A stretch of 40,869 bases of DNA from a virus (taxonomy: Duplodnaviria; Heunggongvirae; Uroviricota; Caudoviricetes), in the IMG/VR virus record IMGVR_UViG_2541047754_000003; one strand, written 5' to 3'. The first letter of the stretch is position 1. Each line of letters starts with the position of its first letter. Of the stretch, positions 9,293-28,853 are shown in pieces. The notes beneath the pieces were generated by a model. The model was not told where the DNA came from. It saw only the letters and a program-made list of their open reading frames with translations, and did not search any database. The position numbers were made by a program, and so were the translations under genes.

Positions 9293-9304
9293 GTGACATG
9301 TCAC
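9293..9304. repeat. 12-bp perfect palindrome GTGACATGTCAC (copy 1 of 3)
   Basis: Identical copies at 26576-26587 and 28842-28853, all at gene 3-prime ends bordering the late operon. Confidence 0.6.
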
Positions 9305-9311
9305 GCTCACG

Positions 9312-9452
9312 TTATGACAAGCCTATGTACCCTGCTACACCAGATAATATCAAAATAACTGCAACAGCAAATTCGCCATCGTCAATGATACATTTACGGT
9401 TCATAACGCCAAGTGCAACAAGCGCAAACACAACAAGAATAAAAGCAATCAT
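9312..9452 (-). CDS. Small hydrophobic protein (46 aa, two predicted TM helices)
   Basis: ATG 9452 with AGGA RBS (taAGGAtgagaaATG); not in ORF track (below 60 aa); directly follows the 824-aa virion protein gene. Confidence 0.45.
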   Translation of the reverse strand: MIAFILVVFALVALGVMNRKCIIDDGEFAVAVILILSGVAGYIGLS

Positions 9453-9461
9453 TTCTCATCC

Positions 9462-11936
9462 TTATTGCGGAGTGACATCCTGTGGTCGCCACCAGTATGT
9501 CTGGTTAAACTCTTTCTTCGAACGTTGCTCCATTTTACGCAAATAGCCTGGTGAAAAATACTCCTGCATCTGGTTAAAGATCATGTGATCGAGAGCCGCC
9601 TTTAAGTACCAGAGATTCGCACCTGGCATCAAACCTTTCCCCAGCTTCACCAGATCACCACCAGTCTGCTCACTCTTCCCTTCCACAGCATTTAACGGTA
9701 TGCCCTGAGCAATCTTCACTACGTCATCAACCAGACCAGCTACCGGGCCAAGCATCGACGCCAGCGCGCCGCTTCCGTACCTAGTGTGATCTGACAATAA
9801 AAAGTCACCGTAAAGGCCAAGACCACCACCTTTCAGTAGAGCACCAAGCCAAAATTTAGCAGCATCTTCTCCTGTCATCTCGCGAGGATTACGACCAGAC
9901 GCAAGGTCGTTAAGTTGCTGCGACAAAGCGCCAAGAATGGTCGTACTGGCAATAAACGTCGCAATATATGCCGCACGCCCACCAGCAGACGGCATACCCA
10001 TAGCGCGTGACCAGTGACGCATAACTACCGAGATAGGGAACGATTTAAACAGGAAAACACTTCTCGTTAATTCACCTTTCCATGTTCCACGCTGAATACC
10101 AGAACCGGTTATCAGTTGCTCACGTGCTCCCGGTGTAATAACAGCCATATCAACTTCTTCAGTTACGGCACCGAGAAGTTTACGCATTGCCTCAAATTTC
10201 ACGCGTTCAGGCTCACCAAGATGTTTAACTGCTGAATCAGGGATACGCATAATGCTTTCCGGTGTCAGCATCGTATTATTGCCGTTCCCCCAGTCCTCCT
10301 GTTGCGCCAGCTTCCATACGCTCCAGTCTGTTTCAGTAATCCCTTTGCTTTTCAGGATACGAAAATCAGAGTCATCGAGGCTACGAAGGTCTGGTGTCCG
10401 TGACACTACCTCTCCCAGGCTTCCCATCATTGTTACGCCATAGGCGCGCTTGTGCGCATCTGACCATGCTGTAAGCCCACTGGCACGCATTACCGCCGTT
10501 GCCGCCCAACGAGACACAGACGGCCCCATATTATCCATTGCCCAGCGGTTAACACTGCCAAGTAGAGATTCCATCGCCAGACCAGCGCGGCGCGCCCGCG
10601 CAAGCTCAGTACGGTTCGTTGGGTCCATAGCTTCAAGCTGGTTGCGGAATAACTGGTTCATTGGAAGGTTGGTCACCTTCGCAGACAGATACATGGTTCC
10701 AAGATCAGAGAACGATGACAGCAACGCGGATCCTAGTCGGCTGGCAACCAGCCAGTTGCGGATATTGTCAGACCAGCGCGCGATGTGCGGATTCGCTACA
10801 GGCTGTGTCTTTCCGGAAATAAAGTTGTACAGATTCTCTGTGTTGTTCGCCAGCCGCTCGACTTTACCGGTTTTACTCGGGTTAGCTGTTGCCGTTTCTG
10901 CCTTCACCTGATCAAGAAGAGAGCGGAAAACATGATCGGGGTTTGGGCCATATGTTTCCACCAGTGCAATATCTTTACTGATACCTTCCAGGTGACCGAC
11001 CATGATTTCCCATAGAGAGCGATCGCCATAAAGTTGCTGATATTGCAGATAGGAATCTGCATCTTTGAAATGTATCTGTCGTGATGCATTACCCCGGTTA
11101 GCACGTGCGCCGGAAATTCGCATTCCGGTATCAGTAAGCTTATTCAGCCCACCAGTAGCGATCGTGTTATAAGCCTCTCCAAGAAATGCAGACAACTCGG
11201 CATCGTTCATCAGTTGTCCATCGACTCGGGTATAATATTTGCGATCCAGCTTACCTATAACATCGCTAACCCACTTATCCTTTGATACCGCCCCAACCTT
11301 TTCCATAGAATGATGTTGAGGGATCCCCCAGTTTTCGAGATAGCCAATGTCCCCACCAGCATCATTAAACCGGCGGCGCAGTAGCTCTGTCACTTCTCTC
11401 CACGCCTTAGCACCTTTTCTTGCTTTAGCATTGCCAGTATTTTGCCCTCGCATTTCATATACCAGGTCACGCACGCCAGCTTCATCTTCAAACAGGCCAA
11501 AAAAGCGAGGATCAACTGCTTCAAATGCCTCCTGCAATTGACTCAATGCATAATCACGAGTGGCTTTTGTTCTGGATTCAACAGAGAGGAAATTCGATTT
11601 ACCGTCTGCATTAAAAGCAATAGTACGGTTAAGAGCGCCAAGTTTCCCATCAGCCCCTTGATAGCTATTGATAAATTTATCCAATCTCTGACGTGCGGCT
11701 ATAGTGAGAGCCACACGACGTTTCTTTAATGCCGCTTCTCGCTGTAATTCTTCAGATGCCAATTGTGCTGCACGATACAACCGTTCTGATTCGGAAAGTT
11801 GTCGCCACGACATCGGATCATCACGAGCAATGGAGCGCATATTTCGATAAATGCGGTCTTCAATGTTCTGTATTTCTCGCGCCGTTAACGTGCGCTGCGC
11901 CGCCTGCTGGACCGCTTGTATACATTCCTGTCTCAT
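9462..11936 (-). CDS. Large internal virion/ejection protein (824 aa)
   Basis: Long ORF in collinear structural operon after capsid and tail genes, as in podovirus ejection-protein modules. Confidence 0.7.
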   Translation of the reverse strand: MRQECIQAVQQAAQRTLTAREIQNIEDRIYRNMRSIARDDPMSWRQLSESERLYRAAQLASEELQREAALKKRRVALTIAARQRLDKFINSYQGADGKLGALNRTIAFNADGKSNFLSVESRTKATRDYALSQLQEAFEAVDPRFFGLFEDEAGVRDLVYEMRGQNTGNAKARKGAKAWREVTELLRRRFNDAGGDIGYLENWGIPQHHSMEKVGAVSKDKWVSDVIGKLDRKYYTRVDGQLMNDAELSAFLGEAYNTIATGGLNKLTDTGMRISGARANRGNASRQIHFKDADSYLQYQQLYGDRSLWEIMVGHLEGISKDIALVETYGPNPDHVFRSLLDQVKAETATANPSKTGKVERLANNTENLYNFISGKTQPVANPHIARWSDNIRNWLVASRLGSALLSSFSDLGTMYLSAKVTNLPMNQLFRNQLEAMDPTNRTELARARRAGLAMESLLGSVNRWAMDNMGPSVSRWAATAVMRASGLTAWSDAHKRAYGVTMMGSLGEVVSRTPDLRSLDDSDFRILKSKGITETDWSVWKLAQQEDWGNGNNTMLTPESIMRIPDSAVKHLGEPERVKFEAMRKLLGAVTEEVDMAVITPGAREQLITGSGIQRGTWKGELTRSVFLFKSFPISVVMRHWSRAMGMPSAGGRAAYIATFIASTTILGALSQQLNDLASGRNPREMTGEDAAKFWLGALLKGGGLGLYGDFLLSDHTRYGSGALASMLGPVAGLVDDVVKIAQGIPLNAVEGKSEQTGGDLVKLGKGLMPGANLWYLKAALDHMIFNQMQEYFSPGYLRKMEQRSKKEFNQTYWWRPQDVTPQ

Positions 11937-11941
11937 TTAAT

Positions 11942-13744
11942 TTAACCTCTCAAGAAACACGCCACAGCAACATCAAACAGGCTGGAATCCTGTATTGCCT
12001 GCTCACTTTCCCTGTTCGCTTCATCCAGTACTTCACGCGCACTGCGCGATTGTGGATTACCATCATCATCCAGCACGGTGATTATCATGTCCGGAGATTC
12101 AAGCAGCGAGTCTTCAGCTATACGCAGATCAATATCTCCTGCCGGATCTGCCATCATTTTTTGTTCTGTCTGTTGCAATATCTTACCGGGCTCAAAAGGA
12201 GCTACTTCGTCTGGCGTCCTGACCTCTGCTGTTTTATAGAATGAAACAGCCTGAGCATTAAGTTCACTTTCAGCCTGCTGTCTCCGTGCCAGTTCTGCTC
12301 GAGCTTCAAAAAACTGACCGCCAGGCTCATGCGGTGCCAACGCGTTACGGGAAAATTCCAGGCGTTCTTGTGCCTGCCGGATTCGTTGGTCAATATCGCG
12401 AATTCTGGCCTGTTTATCTGATCGAGCACGAGACAAAGCTTTACCGCTACCAGTTGGCTCTTCTGCAAGAATTTGTGCGCGCTGTTCAGTGAGATTGTCG
12501 ATAATTCGTTGGCTATTAGCGATTTCAGACTGGTAAACCTGTCTATCGCCACGCGACAAAAGCTGCGCGGCCTGTTCTTCAAGCAACCGATTTTCTATAG
12601 CGCGCGCCGTTTTTCCATCATCTACAGATGACAGAGCCTCATTAACTGCCTGAGAAAGCAGACTCTTGTGCCCAGGGATTTCACTGAAAGATGCAGACTC
12701 AACAATGCTGGCAACGTCTACAGGTCTCCCCTGGCTAACATCAGACATGGCTTTTCGCAGAGCCTGAATGTGAGAATTACGCGAAAGCACGTTGATCGGC
12801 ACGCCAGGAGCAATATCAATTTCAGCATGATGAGCGGCATTCGCCGCCAGTGCAGCATCGATATCAACTGGTGAAAAATTTGGTGCGCTTGTAGACTCGC
12901 CGCGAGAGTTAATAAATCTGCCGACACCACCAAACGCCACCCCAAGAACAGCATCAATAGCAATTGCCTGTCGATCCAACACATCATACTGGTTAGCCAT
13001 TTCGCTATAGCCACCATCACGAAGCGTTTTTGCAGTAAGCCCACGCTGTGCCATACCGAACGCAATATTTGTACCTGCGGCATAGGCAATATCTGGCGTT
13101 GCACGTACTGCTGTTGCTGCGGCGCGTCGCACTGAACTCTCACCCGTCCGCGCAAGCTGAGCCGCCACACCTTCCGCCAGCGCACCACCAGCACGTAACC
13201 CGAGGCTCATAGGGATCAGTGTTCCGGCACCAGCAGTAATGCCCTGCACTAATCCCGCTTCCTGCGCCGTCCTGAAATCAACACCCTGTGCTATCAGCCG
13301 TTCAAACTCAGAAAAACCCTGTAGCGAAGTTACCGCCGCTGCACCTCCGACAGGACCACCGAGCGTTGTACCGACAACAGCCTGCCCGCCCATATCGAAC
13401 AACCCATAAAGAACCTGCCCGGCGGTTCCGGTTGTCGCGGCATCAGGCGTCAGCCGCTTAACCTGCTGCTCTGCTAGTTTTCTCTGCTCGGCAATGTATG
13501 AAACTGAAGTATCATTGAGCGAGGTGTTTTCGTTAATAAACTGAGCAATCGGGGATACGATTTTATCCATCCCAGCCCATAGCAACTGATCTGGCTTTGC
13601 CACCAGCCCGGAGTACAAACCAGACAATGCCGCTCCTACAGCATTGTCGAAAAAACCAACATCGCTGTTAAAGCCCGCTGGATTTGATGCTGCTTCGTCA
13701 AGTTGCTGATTCTGGTTTACTGGATTAAGGCCAAAGTAACTCAT
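11942..13744 (-). CDS. Internal virion/ejection protein (600 aa), Gly/Ala-rich
   Basis: Long ORF; Gly/Ala-rich hydrophobic stretches suggesting membrane interaction; operon context. Confidence 0.7.
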   Translation of the reverse strand: MSYFGLNPVNQNQQLDEAASNPAGFNSDVGFFDNAVGAALSGLYSGLVAKPDQLLWAGMDKIVSPIAQFINENTSLNDTSVSYIAEQRKLAEQQVKRLTPDAATTGTAGQVLYGLFDMGGQAVVGTTLGGPVGGAAAVTSLQGFSEFERLIAQGVDFRTAQEAGLVQGITAGAGTLIPMSLGLRAGGALAEGVAAQLARTGESSVRRAAATAVRATPDIAYAAGTNIAFGMAQRGLTAKTLRDGGYSEMANQYDVLDRQAIAIDAVLGVAFGGVGRFINSRGESTSAPNFSPVDIDAALAANAAHHAEIDIAPGVPINVLSRNSHIQALRKAMSDVSQGRPVDVASIVESASFSEIPGHKSLLSQAVNEALSSVDDGKTARAIENRLLEEQAAQLLSRGDRQVYQSEIANSQRIIDNLTEQRAQILAEEPTGSGKALSRARSDKQARIRDIDQRIRQAQERLEFSRNALAPHEPGGQFFEARAELARRQQAESELNAQAVSFYKTAEVRTPDEVAPFEPGKILQQTEQKMMADPAGDIDLRIAEDSLLESPDMIITVLDDDGNPQSRSAREVLDEANRESEQAIQDSSLFDVAVACFLRG

Positions 13745-16254
13745 TGCGGAATATCTCCGGAGAATCTCTGACGCTTCTGTGTCAGATCAAGAACAACAGG
13801 AGAACCATCATCTTTCAGCAGATAACCAGTACCAAGTTTCACCAGGTACTGACTATCGCCGTAACTTTGCAAACCATACTGACCAGGCGGTGTTTTTATC
13901 CCGGTGCCGACAACTTGTTCATTCCAAGCCTGATTAACCTGCTTATCGAATTGCTCTGCAGACATTCCCCACGGCAAAAGGACATTCCCCATTCCGTTAT
14001 AGTCATGCACGCCACCTGTAGCTACGTTAACAGCCTGTTTCCAGATATCAGTGTCAATTTCGCCTGATATCACGCCTTTTTTCGCCATCACACCAGCGTA
14101 ATAGTCCTTTGCGATCTCGTATGCCATTGATGCCCCCTGAGCATCACCAGCAAATGCATCCTTCACCATGTCAGAAAACTCAAGGCGAAGATCAGCATCT
14201 TTAGGCATCGGAATACCTTTCGCATCATCAGTACCTTTACGAGCCGCCGCGCCAGCAAGAATTGTCTGCGCAGCGGTTTCAGGAGACACGGAAACATCCG
14301 GATTAAACCAGTTTTTTTCTGCCAAAATACCACCAGGCTTGTCCATCAGTATCCCGGCAACGGCAGCAGATGGAGCGTTGGCACTGATCTGCTGTAGTGC
14401 TGACATATACACCTGCCCACCACCAGTGCTCTGCCTGATGGTATCGAGATATGCTGCCTGTTGAGAAACTGGAGCATCACGAAAGAAAACACCGATCTGA
14501 TTGGCCTCGTCTTTGGAAAAGAACGTCAGTGGAGTGCCATATGACTTAGCAAGGTCACTGACCTGAGCGGCACGCAAGGCAACGCTATGTCCAAAGTTAT
14601 CCTTATTGCTCATGTCGATAGGCTTTGCCTGTCCGGAGGCAAGAGAGAACTGCACAGGATCCGACTGCCGCTGCTTTATCACCTGATTTGCAGCCGAAAC
14701 AACGTTGTCATAAAGAGCTGCGCGAGACGCATAACCCTCCCCTGTCTCACCAGTATCCGGGCGTAATTGCTCAACATATGCTGTAATGCTGCTTGTCGGC
14801 ATGTTGCGGAAAGAGCCTATATACTGTCCGGCGATCTGCGTATTCTTAAACTCGGTATATCGCAGGTTTCCTTCTCTGACTCCATAAGCTGCAATAAAAT
14901 CATCCTCACCAGGTGGGTTAGGAAATTCAACGCCACGCATATACGCAGCTGTCGCATCGCGAACCTGGCTGTCAATCATCGTTTTATATTCATCCTGCTG
15001 CTGCCGACGCAGTTGATCCGCCTGTCGCATAAAACTTGCCTGCGCCTCAGAAGATGCCGCATCGAATGCTGCATTACCGGTATAGCGTTTGGTGTTGGTT
15101 GGAATTGTTGATAAACCAAGTGCTGCACTGACACCAGCAGTTAACTGCTGATCACTGTATGGATGGCTACCGTTCTCATGATGGATAATGGCTGCACAAA
15201 GCGCCTTCAGGGTATCAGGATTTGATGCATCGAGAGGCTCATCAGCAGAAACGCCAAGTTGTTCGCACACTGCTTTGATATACGACATAGTGTCATTTTT
15301 ATCAGTGGGCGGTGCCCAGCGATTAATTATCTCGCTGACGGTATCAATACCCTGCCTATGATACGACATCAGGTTCCGCCCTAATGCACGAATCCCGTGT
15401 TCAGGTGTTTCGAATTTAGCAAATCGACCATCATCACCGGTCTGGCCTACCCACGGATTAGTTTTGCTGTATTCGAGATTTCCTGGGTTATTGTTGCGTA
15501 TGCCACGGGCACGATCGGAAGAGTCACTATCGGCTACAGCACGGCGAGCTCCAGCAGCAGTATCACTTAACTCGCCATTACTTTGGATGAATGCGGTCGC
15601 ATTGTTTGCCGACCACTGGGACAATGCGGCATCAGCAACCTTCTCTTTAAACTCGATTTTCTTGGCCTGGATTTGCTCGTCGCTCCAGCCATGCGCAATG
15701 CCGTAATCCTCAATTTGCTGGAAAGTTTGCTTATTAGCCAATACGTATGCGGCGTTGTCGCCATACAATGCTGCGGCATTTTTACCATTGTTCAGCAGCG
15801 TAGCCTGAAACTGACCTTCTTCGTAGGCATTTATTTGCCCTATCTCGTGCCGCCCGGCCTGCGTAGTGAACTGAATACGCTGCTGCTGCGCCTGCTGCAT
15901 GAAAGCATTACGAGCCTGTTCATCCGGCAGCGACATAGCCAGTTGTTCGACCTGAGCATCAAACTGCTGCGTATACTCCTGACCTTTTCCAATAGCATTT
16001 TTCCCTTTCAGGTTAAGCAAACCTGTTTCAGGGTTATTCAGCAGATCGCTGCTTATCTGGCTTAAGCTAAGAGAAGCATCCTGAGCCATAGCAACATTCG
16101 CGCGCTGTTTTGCCTGCGCAATAATACCTGCATATTGCTCTGCAACATCGCCAAGTACATCACCGACATTTGGTGTCTGAAACGATGAGAATCCCTGCGT
16201 CGAAATCCCTCTGCTCTGAACCTGACGGCCCGATGTTGTTGGTACAACTGGCAT
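13741..16254 (-). CDS. Large internal virion/ejection protein (837 aa)
   Basis: Long ORF with 4-nt start-stop overlap to neighbour; structural operon context. Confidence 0.7.
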   Translation of the reverse strand: MPVVPTTSGRQVQSRGISTQGFSSFQTPNVGDVLGDVAEQYAGIIAQAKQRANVAMAQDASLSLSQISSDLLNNPETGLLNLKGKNAIGKGQEYTQQFDAQVEQLAMSLPDEQARNAFMQQAQQQRIQFTTQAGRHEIGQINAYEEGQFQATLLNNGKNAAALYGDNAAYVLANKQTFQQIEDYGIAHGWSDEQIQAKKIEFKEKVADAALSQWSANNATAFIQSNGELSDTAAGARRAVADSDSSDRARGIRNNNPGNLEYSKTNPWVGQTGDDGRFAKFETPEHGIRALGRNLMSYHRQGIDTVSEIINRWAPPTDKNDTMSYIKAVCEQLGVSADEPLDASNPDTLKALCAAIIHHENGSHPYSDQQLTAGVSAALGLSTIPTNTKRYTGNAAFDAASSEAQASFMRQADQLRRQQQDEYKTMIDSQVRDATAAYMRGVEFPNPPGEDDFIAAYGVREGNLRYTEFKNTQIAGQYIGSFRNMPTSSITAYVEQLRPDTGETGEGYASRAALYDNVVSAANQVIKQRQSDPVQFSLASGQAKPIDMSNKDNFGHSVALRAAQVSDLAKSYGTPLTFFSKDEANQIGVFFRDAPVSQQAAYLDTIRQSTGGGQVYMSALQQISANAPSAAVAGILMDKPGGILAEKNWFNPDVSVSPETAAQTILAGAAARKGTDDAKGIPMPKDADLRLEFSDMVKDAFAGDAQGASMAYEIAKDYYAGVMAKKGVISGEIDTDIWKQAVNVATGGVHDYNGMGNVLLPWGMSAEQFDKQVNQAWNEQVVGTGIKTPPGQYGLQSYGDSQYLVKLGTGYLLKDDGSPVVLDLTQKRQRFSGDIPQ

Positions 16255-16266
16255 CTTATTATCCCC

Positions 16267-16806: not shown

Positions 16807-17270
16807 TATTTTCTCTCCATGTGAAATCTGTGGAAATTAAGACCAAGAGCACCATAAGGCGCGGCTTCTTCAAGCCTGAATCCAAGCCAGTGCAGCCATG
16901 CTTTGGCAACATGGTTTCGCTCGTCGACGTAGTTTTCCAGGCGCGGATAAACTGCCAGCATCTGCTGCAATACAGGGCGGCAGTGGCGAAGAAATGTCTT
17001 CTGATATTTTTCAATACGGCTGGTTCCGACCAGCCATGGCGTACCATTGCCACCGATCATTGACGCCGGAGATACACCAAACATGGTTACCAGTTCTCCG
17101 TTCGCGAACCCTGACCAGGCCATAGTCGCAGTGCGCAGACCAACGCGCAGCGCATCTTTGGTAGTCATCAGCGATACCGCATACAGTTCGTCAATATCAG
17201 CCTGACGAACATCCGGCAAAATCATCTGAAGATGCTCTTCGGTAGCGGGAATAATTCGAACATCGATCAT
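16806..17270 (-). CDS. Virion-associated protein (154 aa)
   Basis: ORF with overlapping start/stop to neighbours in structural operon. Confidence 0.6.
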   Translation of the reverse strand: MIDVRIIPATEEHLQMILPDVRQADIDELYAVSLMTTKDALRVGLRTATMAWSGFANGELVTMFGVSPASMIGGNGTPWLVGTSRIEKYQKTFLRHCRPVLQQMLAVYPRLENYVDERNHVAKAWLHWLGFRLEEAAPYGALGLNFHRFHMERK

Positions 17271-19741
17271 CAGAATCCCCCAACAGTAAGGCGAGGAATA
17301 ACGGCAAGAACAGACAGTGGCAACGGGTCAAGCTGACGGATTCTTACACGTCCGTTTTTGCCCCAGTTACTGTCCAGTTTCACTTCTACTTTTCCGGTAG
17401 CATCATCAACAGAATCATCGTAGAACTCGAATTCACGCTGTGGATATTCGTACCATTTACCGCCGGGCGTAGTCGCCCAGATGCCGCGACTGGCATTCAC
17501 AACCAGAGTAACGGACGGGATCACCTGTTTTTTGTCCAGCAGCGTTTCCTGTCCGCTAATGTTGATATCCAGTGTTTCGAATTCAGCAGTTATTGGCAGG
17601 CCGATGTGCACAACAGCCCCCGGTGATTCCAGCGTGACGGCACCTCCGGAAACCACTTTCTGTGGTTCCACGTTCGCATCAGAGAGAATGTTTACGGTCT
17701 GGCCTTCAAGATGAGACATGCCTCCAAATGTCCGGCGCGCCATCTGCCAGTTCGTGGTGGCCGCATTCCTGAGGGATGGCGGGACGTTCCTGTTAGCACG
17801 AACCACTACAGCGGTATTGCTGGTTACAGAAATAATGTCGCAACGTAATTCTTTTGACACTTCATCGCCAGTATCAGGATCAGTTCCGGTATAAGGGAAC
17901 TGTAGTTGCGCACCAACATCACTACTGGTGAAGTACGCACCACCAGAAACACTGATTGTATATTCCGCGCGGTAATCCCATTCACCAGAACCACCAGTGA
18001 TGGTCATCGTTCTGTCAGACGTATTTCTTCCATCATAGCTAAGGCCAGAATCAACAAAGAAAGCATCTTCATCGCTGGTAAATAAACGGCTGGACAGTCT
18101 CTCGATGTATCTCACTGTTTGCCCGTTAACGGTTCTGTTAACGACGAAATACACCGCATCTTCATTGCCTTCGCTGATACTGCATGTGCTTTCATATTTT
18201 CCGGTACTGGATTGTGGTGCCCATGCAAAAACCTGCTGATCACGCAAATAGGTCATCACCAGTAATTTACCGTCATCACGAATGCAGAAGGCGCTGGAGT
18301 AAGGGACAATCGAGAAGCACCAGTCAACAATGCTGTGCTTCTGAAAAAGATGATTGGCAAGGATGGTCAGGTCGTTCCCCTGATAGCCGTCAACATCGAA
18401 TGAGTAGGCCAGATCACGGACAACACTGCCTTTCTCCTGGACGAACAGAGCAATATTCGCCACGGCAATTGGTGGGACATTGCTCGAGCCATTTGATCCC
18501 TGAGAGCTGAATGCAAATGATGATGGGGTAAGCACTTTGTTCTGGTCGCCAGTGATGACGTACTCACCTCCGGAAGTCAGCGCCACCAGCGAACCAACAT
18601 CAATCAGGTGACGGATCTCATTAACCTGACGCCCGGCATAGGTGTAGATAATTCTGTCGTCATCCTGCGTAGGATTGCTTTTGCCAAAATCCTTATAATC
18701 CCCGGTACGGCTGGCCCAGATAGTCTGAGGGAACGCAGTCGATGCGGCGAAGTAAAGGCGTTGTTGATAATAAACAACAGTGCCAGGATAACCGTTAATA
18801 CTGTTCCAGGCATATTTAGCCCATTTATAGCTGGCATTATCCTCGCCAACTACCTGCGAAGGGATATAGGAAATCACCTCGGCAGTTGCAGTAGTTCCAT
18901 TTGCAGCAGAGATACGGGCAATGCCAAAACCACTGTGCAGATACTCCCACTCAATGCCGGTATCATCATCACCGGATCCGCCCCAGCCATCCCATGATGT
19001 GCCTTCTGTATGCGAAGGGCGCAAAGTGCCTGTTTTGCCTGCTGTAACGGCGCGATAGTAGTTACTGTCTGCACGGCGAATATCGCCAATCGACGTACTC
19101 TTACTGGTTTCCCATACCGGCACAGAATCCACTGCAGGCTGTTCCAGATAGAACAATTTGCCTACCTGCTCCGCGCCAAAAATTGAGGCGCTTGCCGTTA
19201 ACGTAATTGTCCCGGTGCTGGCGCTGGCATAAACCGTCACTGACTCGTCAATATTGATATCTTCAAATGGCCCGTTCTTCGTTACCACATCAACCAGTTG
19301 CCAGTTGTCATGCGCATAGCGGCGCAACTCTTTCGGCGGGTATGCCGGATGAACCAGCGTAAGCACGTCTGCGCTTTGCGTGAATTTAATTCGGAACAGA
19401 TCGGCTTCAGTATATGGCGTGGCAATTTCATAAATAACATTGCTGCTGTTCAGCACCAACGCACCATCTTTGATAACGCGCATGTACTGGTGTCCGAACT
19501 CCAGAGCATAAGTCTGAACCGTCGAGAACTGGAACGGGATCAGGCGGCATTTCCGATTTGGGTATTTGGCGGCACCGACAAAACGCGTACCAGGTCGATT
19601 CTCAACGCCGCCATACTGCCGCACGATAAAGTTATCGCACTTGCGCAATGCCACCTGGTACTTCGCCATGTCGATACGACCGTACAACGACGGTCCAATC
19701 TCACCACCGGCAAAGCTGGGCTGGATCCAACTGATAGCCAT
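17270..19741 (-). CDS. Large tail structural protein (823 aa), tail tube/nozzle candidate
   Basis: Long ORF following a 202-aa partner gene, an arrangement resembling podovirus tail tubular proteins A and B. Confidence 0.7.
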   Translation of the reverse strand: MAISWIQPSFAGGEIGPSLYGRIDMAKYQVALRKCDNFIVRQYGGVENRPGTRFVGAAKYPNRKCRLIPFQFSTVQTYALEFGHQYMRVIKDGALVLNSSNVIYEIATPYTEADLFRIKFTQSADVLTLVHPAYPPKELRRYAHDNWQLVDVVTKNGPFEDINIDESVTVYASASTGTITLTASASIFGAEQVGKLFYLEQPAVDSVPVWETSKSTSIGDIRRADSNYYRAVTAGKTGTLRPSHTEGTSWDGWGGSGDDDTGIEWEYLHSGFGIARISAANGTTATAEVISYIPSQVVGEDNASYKWAKYAWNSINGYPGTVVYYQQRLYFAASTAFPQTIWASRTGDYKDFGKSNPTQDDDRIIYTYAGRQVNEIRHLIDVGSLVALTSGGEYVITGDQNKVLTPSSFAFSSQGSNGSSNVPPIAVANIALFVQEKGSVVRDLAYSFDVDGYQGNDLTILANHLFQKHSIVDWCFSIVPYSSAFCIRDDGKLLVMTYLRDQQVFAWAPQSSTGKYESTCSISEGNEDAVYFVVNRTVNGQTVRYIERLSSRLFTSDEDAFFVDSGLSYDGRNTSDRTMTITGGSGEWDYRAEYTISVSGGAYFTSSDVGAQLQFPYTGTDPDTGDEVSKELRCDIISVTSNTAVVVRANRNVPPSLRNAATTNWQMARRTFGGMSHLEGQTVNILSDANVEPQKVVSGGAVTLESPGAVVHIGLPITAEFETLDINISGQETLLDKKQVIPSVTLVVNASRGIWATTPGGKWYEYPQREFEFYDDSVDDATGKVEVKLDSNWGKNGRVRIRQLDPLPLSVLAVIPRLTVGGF

Positions 19742-21055: not shown

Positions 21056-21065
21056 CGATATCACC

Positions 21066-21554: not shown

Positions 21555-22547
21555 TTACACCACGCGGGCTTCTGTTTCCAGAAGCGCATCAGTTTCACGG
21601 ATTGGTACACCACGGAATGACGTCCACCACTCGCCTTCAGTCTCTTTTACGCTAATCGCCAGAGATGTTTTCTCCAGAGACTGCAGATCAAGAGCCTGGC
21701 CTACAGTGCGGTTCATGTAGAACACCGGGCGACCCATGCCACGGTTTGGAATGCGATGCAGTGCTTTAACCATCAACTTCGCAATATTTGCGGCAGAGGA
21801 AGGTTCTGAAAGATTGCTGACATCGATGTTTGCAATGCGAACAACATAACGCCAGTCACGCAGAGCAAGTCCGTTGTCCCATTTGTAATGGGTACGGTAG
21901 CCTTCGTACTTGCCGCCATTAGCATCTTCCAGTGTCACCTGGCCTTTATCTTCCATCTGAATGCCAGCCTTCTGCCCTTTCGGGAAGATGCCATGCACGG
22001 TGTTTTCGCCCCACACCACTAACCAGATTGAGGTGTTATCTGTGCCCGTGCCACCAGCATCAATGATGTTCTGAGCATTACCTGCAGACAGGCTGGAATA
22101 GCGGGAGGACAGTCCCATAAACTGCTGAGGGTTAACGCTGGAATCACCATAAAACAGCGTCTGCGCCATCTGCTGATTCATCGCTTCAATAAATGCGCGG
22201 TCTTCAGACAGGCGGAATTCGGCGGTATTGCCGTTCAGATCAGCCAGTGACTTATCGACTTCAGCATAGGTTTCCAGCATGCCAACGGAATCGGTTACCT
22301 GCACTGTGGTTGATTTGCTTGGCTGTACGCCATAGTTCAGCAAACGCCAGGTAGCTGAAGGTAAACCAGAACGAATGGTGGTTCGGTGTCCGGTAGGAAG
22401 GTTCCCTTCGACAAAAGGCATATCCTGAAGGATCGGGTTAGTTTGACCGAGAAGCTCGATAATCTTATCGACTTTCCCGTTTGGATCGACGCGCTTACCC
22501 CAGTCAGCCAGCGTTAGCGCAGTTAAGCCTTTAACAGCCATTGTCAT
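21555..22547 (-). CDS. Major capsid protein
   Basis: 330-aa ORF immediately after scaffold gene; size and position typical of major capsid proteins. Confidence 0.75.
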   Translation of the reverse strand: MTMAVKGLTALTLADWGKRVDPNGKVDKIIELLGQTNPILQDMPFVEGNLPTGHRTTIRSGLPSATWRLLNYGVQPSKSTTVQVTDSVGMLETYAEVDKSLADLNGNTAEFRLSEDRAFIEAMNQQMAQTLFYGDSSVNPQQFMGLSSRYSSLSAGNAQNIIDAGGTGTDNTSIWLVVWGENTVHGIFPKGQKAGIQMEDKGQVTLEDANGGKYEGYRTHYKWDNGLALRDWRYVVRIANIDVSNLSEPSSAANIAKLMVKALHRIPNRGMGRPVFYMNRTVGQALDLQSLEKTSLAISVKETEGEWWTSFRGVPIRETDALLETEARVV

Positions 22548-22555
22548 TTCCTCTC

Positions 22556-23257
22556 TTATTTGCCATAGAGCACTTCGGCCGCACTACGCTGGCCTTCATT
22601 ACCACCGGTGACCATGCCATCTTCAGACATCGCCTTTCCGATTTTCACGAACGTTTTGACCAGGTCAGGGTGATTACCCAGTCCGGTGGTGTTCAGATAT
22701 TCTTTGAGTTCAGGTGTCCCGAACTGGTCAAGCGCACGCTGTGCGGCGCTAAGGTTAGAAATCAACTTGTCGCCACCGATTTCTTTGTCAGCTTTTACAT
22801 CCGCAGCCCACTGCTCGGTTGTTTTCTGCCAGGCTTCTGCCTGGCGCTGCTGAACACCTGCCAGAATCTTCGGATAAGCATCAACCAGCTTTTGCGCTTG
22901 CTCGTTGGTCAGGTTTAGTTCTCGCGCCACCGGCTCGAATTCCTTCAACGCTTCTGTATCCAGCTCTACGCCTTCGGCAGCCTGAAACTCGTACTTCTCA
23001 GGCGCACCCTCTGGTTTATCGCCGCCCTTTTTTTCATCCTGCTTATCGTTTTCAGGCTTTTTGTCATCAGCAGGTTTATCGCCATCAGAAACAGGTTGTG
23101 GCTTATCACCTTCCTGTTGTGATGGATCACCAACTGGAGCAGGGTTATCATCTGCATGCGCTGACGGTTCTGACGCAGCCGGAGCTGCCCCACCATCGAC
23201 TTGTTGCTCATTGCAAAGACGGCGATACAGCAAACGCTCAAATAAACTCATGATCAC
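22556..23257 (-). CDS. Scaffolding protein
   Basis: Acidic, Lys/Glu/Asp/Pro-rich low-complexity N-terminal half and helical C-terminal half; between portal and capsid. Confidence 0.6.
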   Translation of the reverse strand: MIMSLFERLLYRRLCNEQQVDGGAAPAASEPSAHADDNPAPVGDPSQQEGDKPQPVSDGDKPADDKKPENDKQDEKKGGDKPEGAPEKYEFQAAEGVELDTEALKEFEPVARELNLTNEQAQKLVDAYPKILAGVQQRQAEAWQKTTEQWAADVKADKEIGGDKLISNLSAAQRALDQFGTPELKEYLNTTGLGNHPDLVKTFVKIGKAMSEDGMVTGGNEGQRSAAEVLYGK

Positions 23258-23550
23258 TCCTGTTCACTGGCCTCTTTGGCCATCTTCAAATACTGTTCAG
23301 GGCAATGCGCCATAACGCGCTGAAACAGTTCCAGCGCCAGATTGCGTTGCCCCTCATTAAATGCCATTGCCATAGCATCCATCGGAGAGATAGCGGAAAA
23401 CACCCGGCCTTTCTCCAGCACCGACCAGACAACGCGACGCCCCTGTTCACTGCTCATGACAAAGCGAATGTCATCAATTTCACGCTGTGCCATGTCACGT
23501 TGCTTACGGGCGTTTTCTTCTTTCAGTTGATCGTCTTCGTAATCTGTCAT
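23254..23550 (-). CDS. Hypothetical protein (98 aa)
   Basis: ORF with ATGA overlaps to portal and scaffold genes. Confidence 0.55.
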   Translation of the reverse strand: MTDYEDDQLKEENARKQRDMAQREIDDIRFVMSSEQGRRVVWSVLEKGRVFSAISPMDAMAMAFNEGQRNLALELFQRVMAHCPEQYLKMAKEASEQE

Positions 23551-25226
23551 TGTGATTGCCCACCCTGACCACTAACTGCATTCGCCATAGCTGACAACAC
23601 ACTCGGATCCGAAGTTTTAGCTTCGCTTAGCGTCTTGGCCCCCTGTGCCGCCGCCATCCCCATCGCCATCATTTGTTGCTGCTGTTGTTGCTGTGCCCGT
23701 TGCTGGCGAGCCTGCTCAACCTGTTCCTGCGGAACAATGACGGTTGGAGACACTCCGGACATATCAGCGAATGCATCGATCGCCTGATCAACGTTGAGTT
23801 TGTCGAGAGCTTCTGGTTTCGCTTGCGCAAGTTGACCAATGAAGTTAACCGTGGACGCCAGACTGGACAGGCCGATAGACTTCTGCGCCTGAGCCATGAC
23901 GGAAATGTATTCGACCTTCAGGGGCATGCCTTCCATCGCGTCAGGCGGTGGCGGCAGCATGTTTTTGCGCACCATCATCGAGAAAGCGCGGTCAATGAGA
24001 GGATTAAGACATTCGTCGTTCAGACGCTCCAGAACCGGCCCCAACATCAGAAGTTTTTCTTCTTTCATTTCGATCACCGCTTCAACAGGCATCGAGCGGG
24101 TATTGATGTTCTGCAACATCATGAACAGATCGACAAAGTAGGCGCTGTTAATGATTTGACGAGTGTCCTGAATGTCTGCCACCAAATCTGCTGTACTGGG
24201 GTTAACCAGATAAGCAGGCCTGAAGCCATCCTGACCAGTAATCTGATCGATATACGTGATGTCGCCAGGAAGAAGGGAGGCGCGCTGATTCTTGAGGGAA
24301 GTCGGAGCAACCATCGGCGGATTGGTGGCTTTATCAATCAACTGCGACTTGCGCTTCTGGAGAAGCTGCAATGCCTTAACAGGTCCAAGCGCCAGCATAC
24401 CCGGGCATGATGATCCATAAACATCTTCGCCGTTAACTTCCCAGCGCGGAGCCATAATTGGAAACTCATCGAATCCGGACTCACGCAACAACTTGTCGTT
24501 ATCTCCACCAACCTCGTAATAAACCGATTTGAATGGCTTGTTCTTGCTATCCAGCTTCGATGTATCGCGGTCAATGTTCGGGTAAACCGAATGCCTCACT
24601 TCGATCCACTTCTCGTAGGTGCCGCTTTCCCACATGCTTTTTACGGATTCGCTGACGTTATTTAGCCCGAACTCCTGAACAAGCTGACGAACAGTCATAG
24701 AGAACTTGCGAAAACAGGTGTCAACACTGCCACGAGGTGAGTTAGCCAGGTAGTAACTGCCTATCGGGAATGGCATTGTGCGAATGATGTCCTCGTCATC
24801 CTCCAGCACTGCCATTGCACCAGTGCTGTATGTGCCGAGGCTTCCGTATAACTGCGGAAGAGACTGGTAGAGATTCGACTTATTGAACATATCGTTCATG
24901 CGGTTCTGAACTGCCTCAAGCCACAACTTAACAGGGCCATAATCCATCATTTCAGGATCTGGCGTAGCCAGGCGAAACCACGGACGCGCGGGGCTTGTGA
25001 TGCCTGACATCATGCCGCTGGCGAGAGTGCGCGCCGCCATAGTCCCGGTCGAATCAATAATGCGTGTATTGCGCCGATCGTTACGGTTGGCCTCAGAAGT
25101 CAGAAAGCGGGAACCACGCGGGTTGATGTAATCACTCAACTCGCGCCAGTGCGGCTCGAACGACTGACGCTCGCTTTCAAGTTGTGCGAACTGTTTGTTC
25201 AATCGCTCTTTAGTTGTTTCCGCCAT
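23547..25226 (-). CDS. Portal (head-to-tail connector) protein, podovirus type
   Basis: 559 aa; ATG 25226 with GGAG RBS; C-terminal Gln/Ala/Met-rich tail (QQRAQQQQQQQMMAMGMAAAQ) as in T7 gp8-like connectors; follows terminase. Confidence 0.85.
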   Translation of the reverse strand: MAETTKERLNKQFAQLESERQSFEPHWRELSDYINPRGSRFLTSEANRNDRRNTRIIDSTGTMAARTLASGMMSGITSPARPWFRLATPDPEMMDYGPVKLWLEAVQNRMNDMFNKSNLYQSLPQLYGSLGTYSTGAMAVLEDDEDIIRTMPFPIGSYYLANSPRGSVDTCFRKFSMTVRQLVQEFGLNNVSESVKSMWESGTYEKWIEVRHSVYPNIDRDTSKLDSKNKPFKSVYYEVGGDNDKLLRESGFDEFPIMAPRWEVNGEDVYGSSCPGMLALGPVKALQLLQKRKSQLIDKATNPPMVAPTSLKNQRASLLPGDITYIDQITGQDGFRPAYLVNPSTADLVADIQDTRQIINSAYFVDLFMMLQNINTRSMPVEAVIEMKEEKLLMLGPVLERLNDECLNPLIDRAFSMMVRKNMLPPPPDAMEGMPLKVEYISVMAQAQKSIGLSSLASTVNFIGQLAQAKPEALDKLNVDQAIDAFADMSGVSPTVIVPQEQVEQARQQRAQQQQQQQMMAMGMAAAQGAKTLSEAKTSDPSVLSAMANAVSGQGGQSQ

Positions 25227-25240
25227 TTCAATGACTCCGG

Positions 25241-25447
25241 TTACTGACCAAGCAGCGTTTTACCGCTGGTATTAGCGGTTGATGTGTCGCCCTGAGAACC
25301 GGTAAGCAGCGTAGAACTACGACCAGCAGCAGCGCGACGGCGACGTGTTTCTTCGTCGCGGGCATCAACAACGGCAGCATCCTGCTCCTGTGGTGCTGCC
25401 TGAACTTCTGGTGTTGCAGGCACTGATGGTGAGCTACCCATGCACAT
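25241..25447 (-). CDS. Possible small ORF (68 aa) upstream of portal
   Basis: ATG 25447 preceded by the same 13-nt translation-initiation sequence (CGGAGTCATTGA) as the portal gene; low-complexity product. Confidence 0.3.
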   Translation of the reverse strand: MCMGSSPSVPATPEVQAAPQEQDAAVVDARDEETRRRRAAAGRSSTLLTGSQGDTSTANTSGKTLLGQ

Positions 25448-25515
25448 ATCAATGACTCCGTACGCAATTAAATTATTACCAATTTAACCACATATGATTT
25501 ATTTATCGTAGATAG

Positions 25516-25552
25516 TTGACATTTAACGCGCGAATTATTACCTTTCAGGTAA
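25516..25552 (+). promoter_or_regulatory. Putative promoter (-35 TTGACA at 25516-25521) with operator TTACCTTTCAGGTAA (25538-25552)
   Basis: Consensus -35 hexamer; perfect operator palindrome immediately downstream; oriented toward tRNA and cargo gene. Confidence 0.45.
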
Positions 25553-25874
25553 CTAAAGAGTTCATTCCGGTTACTAACCTGACTGGCTTGTCGTTAAATT
25601 GAACAGGTGGAGTGAGCTTTTATTTTGAGCAGTACGGCGTATGGCACATGCGACGATAGCGGTCTGGATACGTTTAAGGGGCACCCTCCCTTGCTCGGGC
25701 AAACGAACCAGGTAGCCGGAATGTGCAAGTCGAGCGGTTTTATTCCGCGCACGGGGATTCACCATCCCGGCGATTCGGTGTGACGCCTCGGAAGAGACGA
25801 GGGTACAACGATGAGAGCATTTATGGAGCCGCGACAAAGTGTGGTGCCTTAACAGGCTAAGTGCTCTCAGCGTT

Positions 25875-25951
25875 GTGGCATTAGCTCAGTTGGACAGAGC
25901 AACCGCCTTCTAAGCGGTTGGTCGCAGGTTCGAATCCTGCATGCCACGCCA
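25875..25951 (+). tRNA. tRNA-Arg (anticodon TCT), phage-encoded
   Basis: 77 nt; 7-bp acceptor stem GTGGCAT/ATGCCAC, D-arm TAGCTCAGTTGGACAGAGCA, anticodon loop CTTCTAA, T-arm GGTTCGAATCC, 3-prime GCCA; acceptor stem differs from E. coli argU as I recall it. Confidence 0.9.
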
Positions 25952-25994
25952 GAATCACGCCTAAGGACCGTGATGCCAGAAGTTCCAAGGGCTT

Positions 25995-26037
25995 GGCGGT
26001 GATGGTTTCCCTTGAAGGACTATCACCGCCCTTTTTA
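25995..26037 (+). terminator. Putative terminator after tRNA
   Basis: 9-bp stem GGCGGTGAT/ATCACCGCC with large loop, followed by CTTTTTA. Confidence 0.45.
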
Positions 26038-26114
26038 CAGCAGGACGCCATTGCGATGACTTCATGCTGTAAACCAGTACAGCCACGGAAGGCATAACTC
26101 ATTGCTTCCAGTTC

Positions 26115-26138
26115 GCCCGGTTCGCCGGGCATTTTTTT
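26115..26138 (+). terminator. Rho-independent terminator abutting the RBS of the downstream gene
   Basis: Stem GCCCGG/CCGGGC, loop TTCG, followed by seven T; RBS AAGGTGAG and ATG 26150 follow directly. Confidence 0.6.
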
Positions 26139-26149
26139 AAGGTGAGATT

Positions 26150-26572
26150 ATGAAGACAATTGATATGTTGGCTAAGTATCTAAATGAATGGCCATTAAAA
26201 TATTCTCGTATCGTTCAGGCTGAAGACTGCGTTTTTTATGGCGTTTTTGCTGGTAATGAAATGCATTACGAAGTAATTCAGAGTGAGGGACTGACCGGGT
26301 TAACTCTTAGCGAAGACCATGGTACTAGCGTTACGTTCCATGACTGGATAACAGCACAACGTTCTGAAATGGAAAAAGGCGATGTGTTTGATATTTCTCG
26401 CTCTGTATACGCCAAAGAAAAAAGTGATGATGATTACATGCGCGAAAACTTATACAACATGAAGTTACAATGCCTGGCTGAAGTGCTTAGTAAAAGATCT
26501 TTACTTGATGTGGTTGGTGCTGAGCAGGACGCCAAGGCAATCAACGCCGCATTCGATAAAATAACCTTCTAA
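26150..26572 (+). CDS. Hypothetical cytoplasmic protein (140 aa); cargo gene downstream of tRNA
   Basis: ATG with AAGGTGAG RBS; antisense to flanking terminase and portal genes; terminator downstream. Confidence 0.65.
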   Translation: MKTIDMLAKYLNEWPLKYSRIVQAEDCVFYGVFAGNEMHYEVIQSEGLTGLTLSEDHGTSVTFHDWITAQRSEMEKGDVFDISRSVYAKEKSDDDYMRENLYNMKLQCLAEVLSKRSLLDVVGAEQDAKAINAAFDKITF

Positions 26573-26575
26573 CGC

Positions 26576-26587
26576 AGTGACATGTCA
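26576..26587. repeat. 12-bp palindrome GTGACATGTCAC (copy 2 of 3)
   Basis: Exact copy 4 nt after the stop of the cargo gene. Confidence 0.6.
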
Positions 26588-26591
26588 CAAA

Positions 26592-26618
26592 CAGCCAGCC
26601 GATGAGCTGGCTTTGTTT
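26592..26618 (+). terminator. Rho-independent terminator
   Basis: 7-bp stem AGCCAGC/GCTGGCT followed by TTGTTTT. Confidence 0.55.
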
Positions 26619-26662
26619 TATCCTCATCAGAGGATATCAACGACATTATCCCCACCAGCGGA

Positions 26663-28138
26663 TTAAGCATAGGGATCGTAATCTGTGATGGCCTTGCCTT
26701 GCTGGTTCTGCTGACCGGGAATTCGCAGACGCTTCGACACAGGGAACGCAAACGTCAGCAGTAGCGCATCGCCTTTACCAGGAGAACGCCCAAGCCGCTC
26801 CTTGATATCTTCCTTCTGTTCGATAATGATTTTACCGTCCACGCGAACTTTGTACTCTGCCGCCGACAGGTCGTCCGCTGTTTCCTGGTCATCCAGCATG
26901 CCGCCCAGCCTCAGCCATGTCTTGCATGAATTGAACATCTCCCCACGCTTGTTGAGCATCTGCGGGTCAGTAGACGCGCCACCGAACGGAACAAGTTGCC
27001 ATGTACGACCCCATCCGTCACCGATTGACTTCAAACCGGTTCCGTAACCGAAGTCGATGAACACCGCGTCAGCCTGATACTGGTCTTCAAAGTCAGCGAT
27101 ACGCTTTGCCATAATCAGATCGTCAGTGGTCTTGTTGCCAGTCCACAGCACCTTACTGTGCAGCCCCTGCCGCAGGTATATCACAGCGTCATCAACGCCT
27201 GAGTATGCCGGGTCAACGCCGATTATCACCGGAGCATGTGCAACCTGCGCAGCGGTGACCACCCGTTTCATTGCCTCGTCAGTAAGTCCGGTAGGGATAA
27301 ACTGCAATTCCGATGCATCCGGGAATATGCCGCGCACACGGATTTTAACGAAGTCGCTGTCTTCCCCGTAGTCATCAACCCATTTCTGCAACTGCTGTTT
27401 GTTGGTGCCTTCCACCGTCCGGCTGTCAATCTGCGCAGTTTTCCAGCGGTGTTTATATTTGCGGAAACATTCGCGGAAACGTCCGGTATTACGCGTCGGG
27501 TTTCCGAACGCCACCCAGATAATCTCAGTGTCTTCGTCCGTTAGCGCACCCTCGGCAACTTCCCACACCAGATCCGCAATGTTCGACGCTTCATCGAATA
27601 CCACGATGATGCGTTTGCGCTCGTTGTGTAGTCCGGCGAATGCCTCAGTGTTGTGCTCAGACCAGGGTATTGCGTCAGCTCGCCACCGCTTGTCGTGTCC
27701 AGGATCATTGCTGTACATCGCGGTAGCGGTACAGGTAAACCAGTCTTTCGTGATAGCAAGGTTCGACCACTTGATAATTTCCGGCCAGGTCTTCGTTCGT
27801 AGCTGGTTGTCGGTGTTGGCGGTCACCACAACCTTACAATCCTCGCAAGTGGACATGCCCCAGTTGATCAGCATTGAGATGAATGCGGATTTACCAATAC
27901 CGTGACCCGAAGCGCGTGCCAGCATAAGCGGCTGATAGCGCGTCTCTGGATTCTGCAGGTGATCACGTATCTCTCGGAACGCATCAGCCTGCCACTGACG
28001 TGGACCGGTGGCATGTGCCAGTTCAGTCCCATCTTCCCCCCACGGGAACGCATAGAGGGCATAGCCAAGCGGATCGTGAGTGAACCCTGCAATATCCTCG
28101 ATTAACTGCTCTTCAGGAGATAACGCTGTATCTGTCAC
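26663..28138 (-). CDS. Terminase large subunit
   Basis: 491 aa; Walker-A-like ASGHGIGKS near N-terminus; 4-nt overlap with small-subunit gene; followed by portal. Confidence 0.9.
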   Translation of the reverse strand: MTDTALSPEEQLIEDIAGFTHDPLGYALYAFPWGEDGTELAHATGPRQWQADAFREIRDHLQNPETRYQPLMLARASGHGIGKSAFISMLINWGMSTCEDCKVVVTANTDNQLRTKTWPEIIKWSNLAITKDWFTCTATAMYSNDPGHDKRWRADAIPWSEHNTEAFAGLHNERKRIIVVFDEASNIADLVWEVAEGALTDEDTEIIWVAFGNPTRNTGRFRECFRKYKHRWKTAQIDSRTVEGTNKQQLQKWVDDYGEDSDFVKIRVRGIFPDASELQFIPTGLTDEAMKRVVTAAQVAHAPVIIGVDPAYSGVDDAVIYLRQGLHSKVLWTGNKTTDDLIMAKRIADFEDQYQADAVFIDFGYGTGLKSIGDGWGRTWQLVPFGGASTDPQMLNKRGEMFNSCKTWLRLGGMLDDQETADDLSAAEYKVRVDGKIIIEQKEDIKERLGRSPGKGDALLLTFAFPVSKRLRIPGQQNQQGKAITDYDPYA

Positions 28139-28731
28139 TGATTACCATCCTGACGTTCTTTGAGTCGCTTCCTGGCTGCTGCTATGCGATCAGCAATTGT
28201 CACATTCACATTAACATCCAGACGTTCTTTGAATGCGTTGACATCAACATGCTTACCAATCAGCTCAAGGTTCTTCACCTTGTCAGGCCATTTAATTTTT
28301 TTGAGGATTGTCTCTATTGAATCCTCGTTCATGTTCATGATGGTCGATGACAGATCAAAGCCACTAAGCGTAGTGCGCCAGATTTTCGGCCACTCACGGA
28401 TTGGTTTAAGGCTCCCATCGTCGTTGAGGATGTCGATCACGTCCATCTGGTCGATCTCCACCAGGCGCATGAGAACGTAATCAGCACTGACACGCATTCG
28501 TTTGTTGCGCTCCTCCATCAACTCGGCAATCCGTTTCTGAATGCGTTCATCGCGCATCATGACACTGGCTTTAACTGCCGCTGTATTTGGGGAGAATCCT
28601 GCGTTAATCGCAGCCTGAGTCTGGTTTTCAGGCGTTTTGATGTATGACTGGCAATAAGCCTCCTGCATTGCTGTGAGCGGCTTAAATTGCGTTGATTTGC
28701 GTTTATAGGTTTTAGGTTCAGCAGGCATCAT
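28135..28731 (-). CDS. Terminase small subunit
   Basis: Start set at ATG 28731 (MMPAEPK...), because the ORF-track TTG extension covers a terminator and operators; basic DNA-binding N-terminal region; immediately upstream of large subunit. Confidence 0.7.
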   Translation of the reverse strand: MMPAEPKTYKRKSTQFKPLTAMQEAYCQSYIKTPENQTQAAINAGFSPNTAAVKASVMMRDERIQKRIAELMEERNKRMRVSADYVLMRLVEIDQMDVIDILNDDGSLKPIREWPKIWRTTLSGFDLSSTIMNMNEDSIETILKKIKWPDKVKNLELIGKHVDVNAFKERLDVNVNVTIADRIAAARKRLKERQDGNQ

Positions 28732-28763
28732 AACCACCGTGGTAATTGTTACCGTTGTGGTAA
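28731..28763. promoter_or_regulatory. Tandem operator-like palindromes at the head of the late operon
   Basis: TAACCACCGTGGTAA (28731-28745, one mismatch) and TTACCGTTGTGGTAA (28749-28763, perfect). Confidence 0.55.
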
Positions 28764-28774
28764 TAGTACCATGC

Positions 28775-28800
28775 AAAATAAAGCCGCCATAGTTGGCGGC
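28775..28800 (-). terminator. Rho-independent terminator upstream of the late operon
   Basis: Hairpin GCCGCC-AACTAT-GGCGGC followed by TTTATTTTG on the minus strand. Confidence 0.5.
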
Positions 28801-28841
28801 AGTATTCAAAATCCATCAAATTCATCATGCATAATCTACTC

Positions 28842-28853
28842 GTGACATGTCAC
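28842..28853. repeat. 12-bp palindrome GTGACATGTCAC (copy 3 of 3)
   Basis: Exact copy overlapping the stop codon of the 28850-29188 gene. Confidence 0.6.

Follow-up and report, generated by a model that had tools for sequence, protein, structure and literature searches.

A matS-like 12-bp palindrome at operon ends of an epsilon15/phiV10-type prophage and its pairing with a candidate ribbon-helix-helix regulator

The inverted half-sites GTGAC and GTCAC are those of matS, a 13-base-pair (bp) element with the consensus GTGAC[AG]N[TC]GTCAC (PMC3603311, PMC3116907); Escherichia and Salmonella prophages reportedly avoid it (PMC3603311). Proteins bound to DNA within transcription units have been described in a different setting: the lacI gene has the operator O3 at its 3′ end, where bound LacI forms a roadblock to transcription and thereby regulates its own gene (PMC3711431), and RNA polymerase is blocked in front of stop codons by proteins on the DNA (PMC13584721). 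Here we describe the 12-bp palindrome GTGACATGTCAC, which occurs three times at gene ends in a 40,869-nucleotide (nt) stretch of Caudoviricetes DNA (IMG/VR record IMGVR_UViG_2541047754_000003; the whole stretch is called the window below). This stretch is an E. coli prophage of the epsilon15/phiV10 type (Uetakevirus) whose late genes are encoded on the minus strand. Judged from sequence comparison and a structural model, the 12-mers are most likely operators of a dimeric ribbon-helix-helix protein of 112 amino acids (aa), encoded by the gene that ends in the third copy.

The pairing is seen most clearly in the distribution of the gene and the site among phages that otherwise have little in common. 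Homologues of the 112-aa protein were found by tblastn in quite different phages, and each of the genomes examined contains GTGAC-N2-GTCAC sites. The Pectobacterium myovirus ZF40 has three exact copies of GTGACATGTCAC, one of them 3 nt past the gp22 stop codon; N15, a linear plasmid prophage, has three copies of GTGACTGGTCAC, one lying over the stop codon of gene 46; and the Vibrio siphovirus K233 has three copies of GTGAC(A/G)CGTCAC, the nearest 226 nt past the stop of the family gene. One exact site is present in the P2-like Yersinia phage 42.18, away from the family-gene stop, and one in the lambda-like phage Chlobot, 7 nt past it. In an all-against-all comparison, the open reading frame (ORF) of the 112-aa protein was the only ORF of the window with a homologue in all five of these phages, and the integrase was the only other to match even two of the five types. 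These comparisons support the view that the gene and the site form a mobile module whose two parts would move together between unrelated phages. The regulator gene copy of Chlobot (17152-17487) is 87.5% identical and is changed at otherwise conserved residues (Y50 to C, and within LLIR); given these changes and the single adjacent site, the copy is possibly decaying. In the Chlobot database record the gene is divided into two mis-called ORFs.

The same arrangement recurs in viral sequences of IMG/VR, where 173 homologous loci were located by protein homology with single family proteins as queries. At 160 of these loci a site lies within -1 to +7 of the family-gene stop, and at 155 it starts exactly 1 nt before that stop, an arrangement shared by 75 of 79 Uetakevirus loci, all 49 N15-like loci and 31 of 45 ZF40-like loci; in another five of this last group the site is at +5 or +7. 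As a control, the contents of 120 viral stretches carrying the 14-mer TGTGACATGTCACA were compared with those of 120 stretches carrying the half-site-swapped sequence TGTCACATGTGACA, each of the two sequences having at least 120 matches. The former hold 146 GTGAC-N2-GTCAC sites and the latter, in 1.06 Mb, a single one; two or more sites are found in 25 of the 120 as against none, and the family gene itself in 32 of the 120 as against none. The 88 TGTGACATGTCACA stretches that lack the family gene might be listed against the pairing, but they are uninformative rather than contrary, because the pieces are short, with all 120 stretches together amounting to about 1.1 Mb, and most come from much longer contigs. 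Comparison across genomes shows the sites to be under strong selection.

Within the window, the three exact copies of GTGACATGTCAC (Table 1) contrast with none in 100 dinucleotide-preserving shuffles, and the three GTGAC-N2-GTCAC sites in 40.9 kb with one in 1.06 Mb of unrelated viral DNA, so that a preliminary description of this DNA was right to place three identical 12-mers above chance. Its coordinates stand for copies 1 and 3; copy 2, which it gave as 26576-26587, is actually at 26577-26588. It also remarked on the nearness of the copies to stop codons, and the distances, read from the sequence, are indeed 0-7 nt in each case. Beyond the 12-mer, the flanks of the three copies are unrelated, save for a pyrimidine before and a purine after. 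When up to two mismatches are allowed, the sole extra match in the window is GTGCCATGTCAC, in a coding region; this copy is present as GTGACATGGCAC 41 times over 80 close-relative loci and is absent from epsilon15. This copy is probably a coincidence of coding sequence, and not functional.

Table 1. Positions of the 12-mer copies and of associated features, in window coordinates unless another genome is named.
Feature	Position	Strand	Remarks
Site 1, GTGACATGTCAC	9293..9304		7 nt past TAA of 47-aa ORF; abuts 5′ base of minus-strand terminator
Site 2, GTGACATGTCAC	26577..26588		4 nt past cargo-gene TAA; 4 nt before plus-strand terminator
Site 3, GTGACATGTCAC	28842..28853		minus-strand bases 2-4 are the TGA stop (28850-28852) of the 112-aa gene
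One-mismatch copy, GTGCCATGTCAC	23487..23498		within 98-aa gene after portal gene; one half-site intact
47-aa ORF	9312-9455	minus	last virion (late) operon gene
Cargo ("moron") gene	26150..26572	plus	140 aa, phrog_4846; ends beside site 2
112-aa gene	28850..29188	minus	precedes terS; eps15 gp49 / phiV10p55 / N15 gp46 family, phrog_536
Intrinsic terminator ending virion operon	9275..9292	minus	stem-loop and T run, immediately 3′ of site 1
Cargo-gene intrinsic terminator	26593..26612	plus	4 nt 3′ of site 2; opposite (late) strand without T run
Intrinsic terminator between regulator gene and terS	28783..28800	minus	41 nt 3′ of site 3
TTACC-N5-GGTAA copies	7298, 7391, 8432, 25538, 28749, 32491, 32553, 34884, 35596, 35658		
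Site 1 equivalents	phiV10 19493, eps15 19517, Tyrion 20377, BUCT554 27924, SPN1S 19662		
Site 2 equivalents	phiV10 2262, eps15 2142, Tyrion 2702, BUCT554 5660, SPN1S 2174		

Five other Uetakevirus genomes, with hosts in E. coli, Salmonella and Enterobacter, also have all three positions occupied, although their flanks diverge. The exact 12-mer is present at each homologous position in epsilon15, Tyrion and SPN1S; phiV10 has two exact copies and, as the third, GTGACATGTTAC, which is split by the linearisation of its record (DQ126339.2, positions 1 and 39104) within the palindrome; and BUCT554 has two exact copies and GTGACCTGTCAC. The check proposed in the preliminary description, whether related phages keep the copies at the same positions, therefore came out positive and strongly favours a function.

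The general motif can be written Y-GTGAC-N2-GTCAC-R, with inverted GTGAC half-sites exactly 2 bp apart. Across 165 distinct contexts, the half-sites are invariant and the preceding base is a pyrimidine, and the 2-nt centre is mostly AT but also CA, AC, CC, AG or GC; by phage, it is TG, GG or CC in N15-like genomes and AC or GC in the Vibrio phage. Among spacings of 0-8 nt in the window and eight other genomes, only 2 nt is found, save for one 13-mer in K233 (3 nt) and one pair in BUCT554 (8 nt). Invariant half-sites around a variable centre fit a symmetric dimer reading double-stranded DNA, and the earlier suggestion of a dimeric regulator is supported to this extent; co-occurrence and predicted fold put forward the 112-aa ribbon-helix-helix protein as the regulator, which would bind its sites as a dimer.

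This protein belongs to a family that PHROGs labels “transcriptional regulator”. Sequence searches of Pfam, NCBIfam and the PDB gave no match, and the library literature holds no account of the N15 gp46 family or of late regulation in Uetakeviruses; nor does the 12-mer string appear in any searchable paper of that library. The AlphaFold model (pLDDT 93) predicts a ribbon-helix-helix fold with a Cys-rich tail, giving a layout of a basic N-terminal helix, a ribbon-helix-helix core and a C-terminal Cys-rich (CxxC...C...C) domain. The features conserved in the family, which comprises 154 clusters at 50% identity among 1.84 billion representatives, are the basic N-terminal helix (R8, R13), the strand-helix-helix core and three to four cysteines. 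Ribbon-helix-helix repressors and their operators are familiar from Arc, Mnt, CopG, MetJ, AmrZ and the antitoxins TacA and ParD; unlike these, the 112-aa family combines a conserved basic N-terminal helix with a Cys-rich C-terminal domain. The known operators of this class lie in promoters, usually those of the regulator's own gene, whereas the present ones are found in the stop codon of the regulator gene itself, within genes and at operon 3′ ends. The proposed regulator-operator module is previously undescribed; its general kind, a ribbon-helix-helix protein acting on an inverted repeat, is known. What is unusual is an operator in the regulator's own stop codon, the placement of sites in transcribed DNA by terminators, and the likeness of the half-sites to those of matS.

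The comparison with matS deserves closer attention. MatP, the protein that binds matS, also has a ribbon-helix-helix domain, its sites are likewise few and scattered in a replicon, and the GTGAC/GTCAC half-sites are identical to those of the 12-mer. The centre differs, being 3 nt (RNY) in the 13-bp matS and 2 nt in the 12-bp element, so that GTGACRNYGTCAC is one base longer than the site described here. MatP differs from the 112-aa protein, too: it is encoded by the host chromosome rather than by a phage, and has a four-helix bundle and a coiled coil but no Cys-rich domain. It could be that the phage protein nonetheless behaves as MatP does and bridges two or three sites as architectural anchors for replication, packaging or segregation. 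Besides the shared half-sites, the presence of about three sites per genome in four phage types accords with this idea, as do the two sites that bracket terS-terL in the window and the K233 site about 20 nt before terS. An architectural role is nevertheless improbable: alignment of the family with MatP by hhalign gave no significant homology (probability 0.7%), the model has no evident coiled-coil or tetramerisation domain, site positions vary between phage types, some genomes have a single site, and N15 packages from a lambda-like cos far from its sites.

A host protein such as MatP, SlmA or a relative might instead bind the 12-mer, with the phage using the sites to manipulate the Ter macrodomain or nucleoid occlusion. 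In length the motif falls a single base short of matS, and it has the outer GTGA/TCAC of the SlmA site GTGAGTACTCAC, itself a 12-bp palindrome. That site agrees with the 12-mer at only 8 of 12 bases, reading GTAC at positions 5-8 where the 12-mer reads CATG, and SlmA is a TetR-family protein; no such protein is linked to the 12-mer sites. The 2-nt spacing is strict, and the one true matS-type 13-mer, GTGACACCGTCAC at K233 position 19491, is additional to the three 12-mers of that phage. As a host-bound site would also leave the tight coupling to one phage gene unexplained, and would sit awkwardly with the reported avoidance of matS by Escherichia and Salmonella prophages (PMC3603311), we consider this explanation very unlikely. 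The statement in the preliminary description that the palindrome is not a CRP site is correct, the best fit here being TGTGA-N4-TCACA as against TGTGA-N6-TCACA.

Operators of the prophage repressor (Rep) were considered and rejected as an identity for the 12-mer, the annotated operators of epsilon15 being a different motif, ATTACC-N4/5-GGTAAT. A palindrome that matches these, TTACC-N5-GGTAA, occurs ten times in the window against 0.06 expected and nowhere overlaps the 12-mers (Table 1). Its copies precede terS (between copy 3 and terS) and the portal operon, surround the antirepressor genes and also occur in the immunity region, and their spread suggests several repressor-controlled promoters across the prophage.

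Intrinsic terminators, located by a consensus scan together with RNA folding, lie downstream of all three copies, each on the strand of the gene that ends there (Table 1). Site 2 is located between terL and the convergent plus-strand cargo gene. At site 3 the minus-strand terminator is followed by a Rep-type operator and then by terS; around this point (window 28773-28809) a TTG-start ORF, like the terS coding sequence of phiV10, begins upstream of the terminator hairpin, and the annotated terS start is therefore probably too early. Two plus-strand genes, one Bro-N antirepressor-like and one YafO-toxin-like (7519-8358 and 8634-9206), converge on site 1. Among the 165 distinct contexts, the order site-then-terminator is seen in 42 and the reverse order in 15.

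The 12-mer could also act at the RNA level, as a short hairpin or as a signal that marks 3′ untranslated regions for processing, and RNA tetraloop hairpins were among the possibilities raised in the preliminary description. All three copies in the window are transcribed as 3′ untranslated sequence just before terminators, and the palindrome is able to fold into a tetraloop hairpin whose stem has 4 bp. The 12-mer alone, though, folds with only -1.2 kcal/mol (z-score -0.03), no better than shuffles. The stem bases are invariant over the 165 contexts, with no compensatory substitutions, a pattern that does not fit an RNA stem, and a fifth pair (C...G) is conserved although it is unable to pair in the hairpin. 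Sites also occur in coding regions, and the asymmetric centre in N15 has no consistent orientation with respect to transcription. The tetraloop suggestion was therefore not borne out, and an RNA element of any of these kinds seems the least probable of the explanations weighed here. A part in the terminator hairpins themselves was rejected as well, the 12-mer being excluded from the terminator stems at all three sites, where it lies 0, 4 and 41 nt to their 5′ side, and folding so weakly.

Nor do the sites resemble promoter elements. GTGACA has some likeness to the -35 hexamer TTGACA, but sites 1 and 2 lack a properly spaced -10 hexamer, and promoter scans around the three sites found nothing above chance, the sole promoter-like match, at site 3, being equalled by shuffles. 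In annotated genomes, the sites lie within genes (ZF40 gp08 and the cII-like gp12; N15 repA) or shortly past stops, and divergent promoter regions are free of them; the lambdoid-type relatives have theirs immediately behind the cro-like gene and within the early-left operon. Such placement favours an effect on the elongating polymerase over one on initiation. The N15 site at 28550-28561 lies about 115 nt upstream of the terminator before the antirepressor operon, between a TAAAAT -10-like hexamer and a weak -35, so that it may coincide in part with the promoter for the anti-immunity region's small regulatory RNA.

These observations can be assembled into a proposal in which the 112-aa protein, made late in the early-right operon, would bind within transcription units or at operon 3′ ends and there form a barrier to RNA polymerase. 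Combined with a one-directional terminator 3′ of the site, the barrier would insulate an operon junction both ways, the junctions being those between the early operon and terS, between terL and the cargo gene, and between the virion operon and the antirepressor operon. Negative feedback would come from the site that includes the regulator's stop codon, by truncation of the regulator's own mRNA, as with LacI at O3. There, as proposed here, an operator lies at the 3′ end of the regulator's own gene; LacI belongs to an unrelated protein family, and a roadblock at the phage sites is proposed by analogy. A barrier role is favoured because repressors on DNA are established roadblocks, and feedback from such a position has a direct precedent in LacI at O3.

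Several points weigh against this proposal. The pairing of protein and site rests on co-occurrence and fold; 13 of the 173 family genes have no site at the stop, and some genomes have a single site; and about two thirds of the 165 distinct contexts are without a nearby terminator. Moreover, a barrier just upstream of a working terminator looks redundant for transcription in the same direction. Taken as a whole, the reading of the 12-mers as operators of the 112-aa protein that act at operon junctions as barriers or insulators has, in our estimation, about an even chance of being right.

Its main rival retains the same protein and sites and reverses the effect, and the looping, host-factor and RNA explanations discussed above rank lower. 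The protein could be handed from its site to a passing RNA polymerase and suppress or tune termination, as a late switch resembling Q or N of lambda; in the present prophage this would carry early transcription into terS and on through the reverse-oriented cargo islands. Three features recall Q with its binding element QBE, and N with nut: the late genes follow directly on the regulator gene, which has the place of Q in lambdoid phages; the sites precede terminators by 0-41 nt; and the other sites of lambdoid-type relatives, after the cro-like gene and in the early-left operon, are at nut-like positions. No Q homologue is annotated in Uetakeviruses. In addition, a profile search of PDB sequences gave borderline matches (E 0.02-0.04) to TraR and YbiI, DksA/TraR zinc-finger proteins that share CxxCGxxLP with the family; proteins of this kind bind the secondary channel of RNA polymerase. 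The reference features of DksA/TraR are a C4 zinc finger (CxxC-x17-CxxC) following a long helix (PF01258), and the apparent match of the C-terminal half to the DksA/TraR zinc finger in the profile search is weak and serves as a lead only.

Against antitermination, the family has no homology to the Q or N families, QBE is part of a promoter and nut acts as RNA, and ZF40, N15 and Chlobot already have Q-like proteins. On the late strand at site 2 the hairpin precedes the site, and terS, the tailspike gene and the portal operon have repressor operators before them, which suggests promoters of their own. No ribbon-helix-helix protein that binds double-stranded DNA is known to load onto elongating polymerase. 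Antitermination is thus unlikely, if still the strongest competitor. A more novel reading is that the gp49/gp46 family constitutes a new class of transcription-elongation regulator, in which a sequence-specific ribbon-helix-helix domain joined to a TraR/DksA-like zinc module would switch termination on or off at the passing RNA polymerase, from sites ahead of terminators or at nut-like positions, with its own synthesis set by the stop-codon site; this we hold to be less likely again, if a shade more credible than the architectural role.

The surroundings of site 2 merit separate description. In different relatives, genes of three unrelated families fill the cargo slot that separates terL from the portal region, and the gap from the cargo stop to site 2 is nonetheless 4 nt in five of the six genomes, with all three families represented, and 27 nt in epsilon15. 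The site and its terminator form a unit that is the fixed end of a variable cargo slot, and from the constancy of the gap, cargo exchange seems to break at this unit. Processing or recombination signals, also entertained in the preliminary description, found no positive support, the one related observation being that cargo genes are swapped right beside copy 2.

The literature found does not address the late-expression switch or the insulation of operons in epsilon15/phiV10-type phages, a group that includes O157 typing phages and Salmonella serotype-converting phages. With a candidate regulator and its exact sites named, this question becomes directly testable. The fixed site-plus-terminator unit beside a swappable cargo gene is relevant to the way in which phages acquire cargo genes. 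As the module is found in N15-like telomere phages, ZF40-like and P2-like myoviruses, lambda-like phages and Vibrio siphoviruses, a family labelled “hypothetical” in many prophages could gain an annotation.

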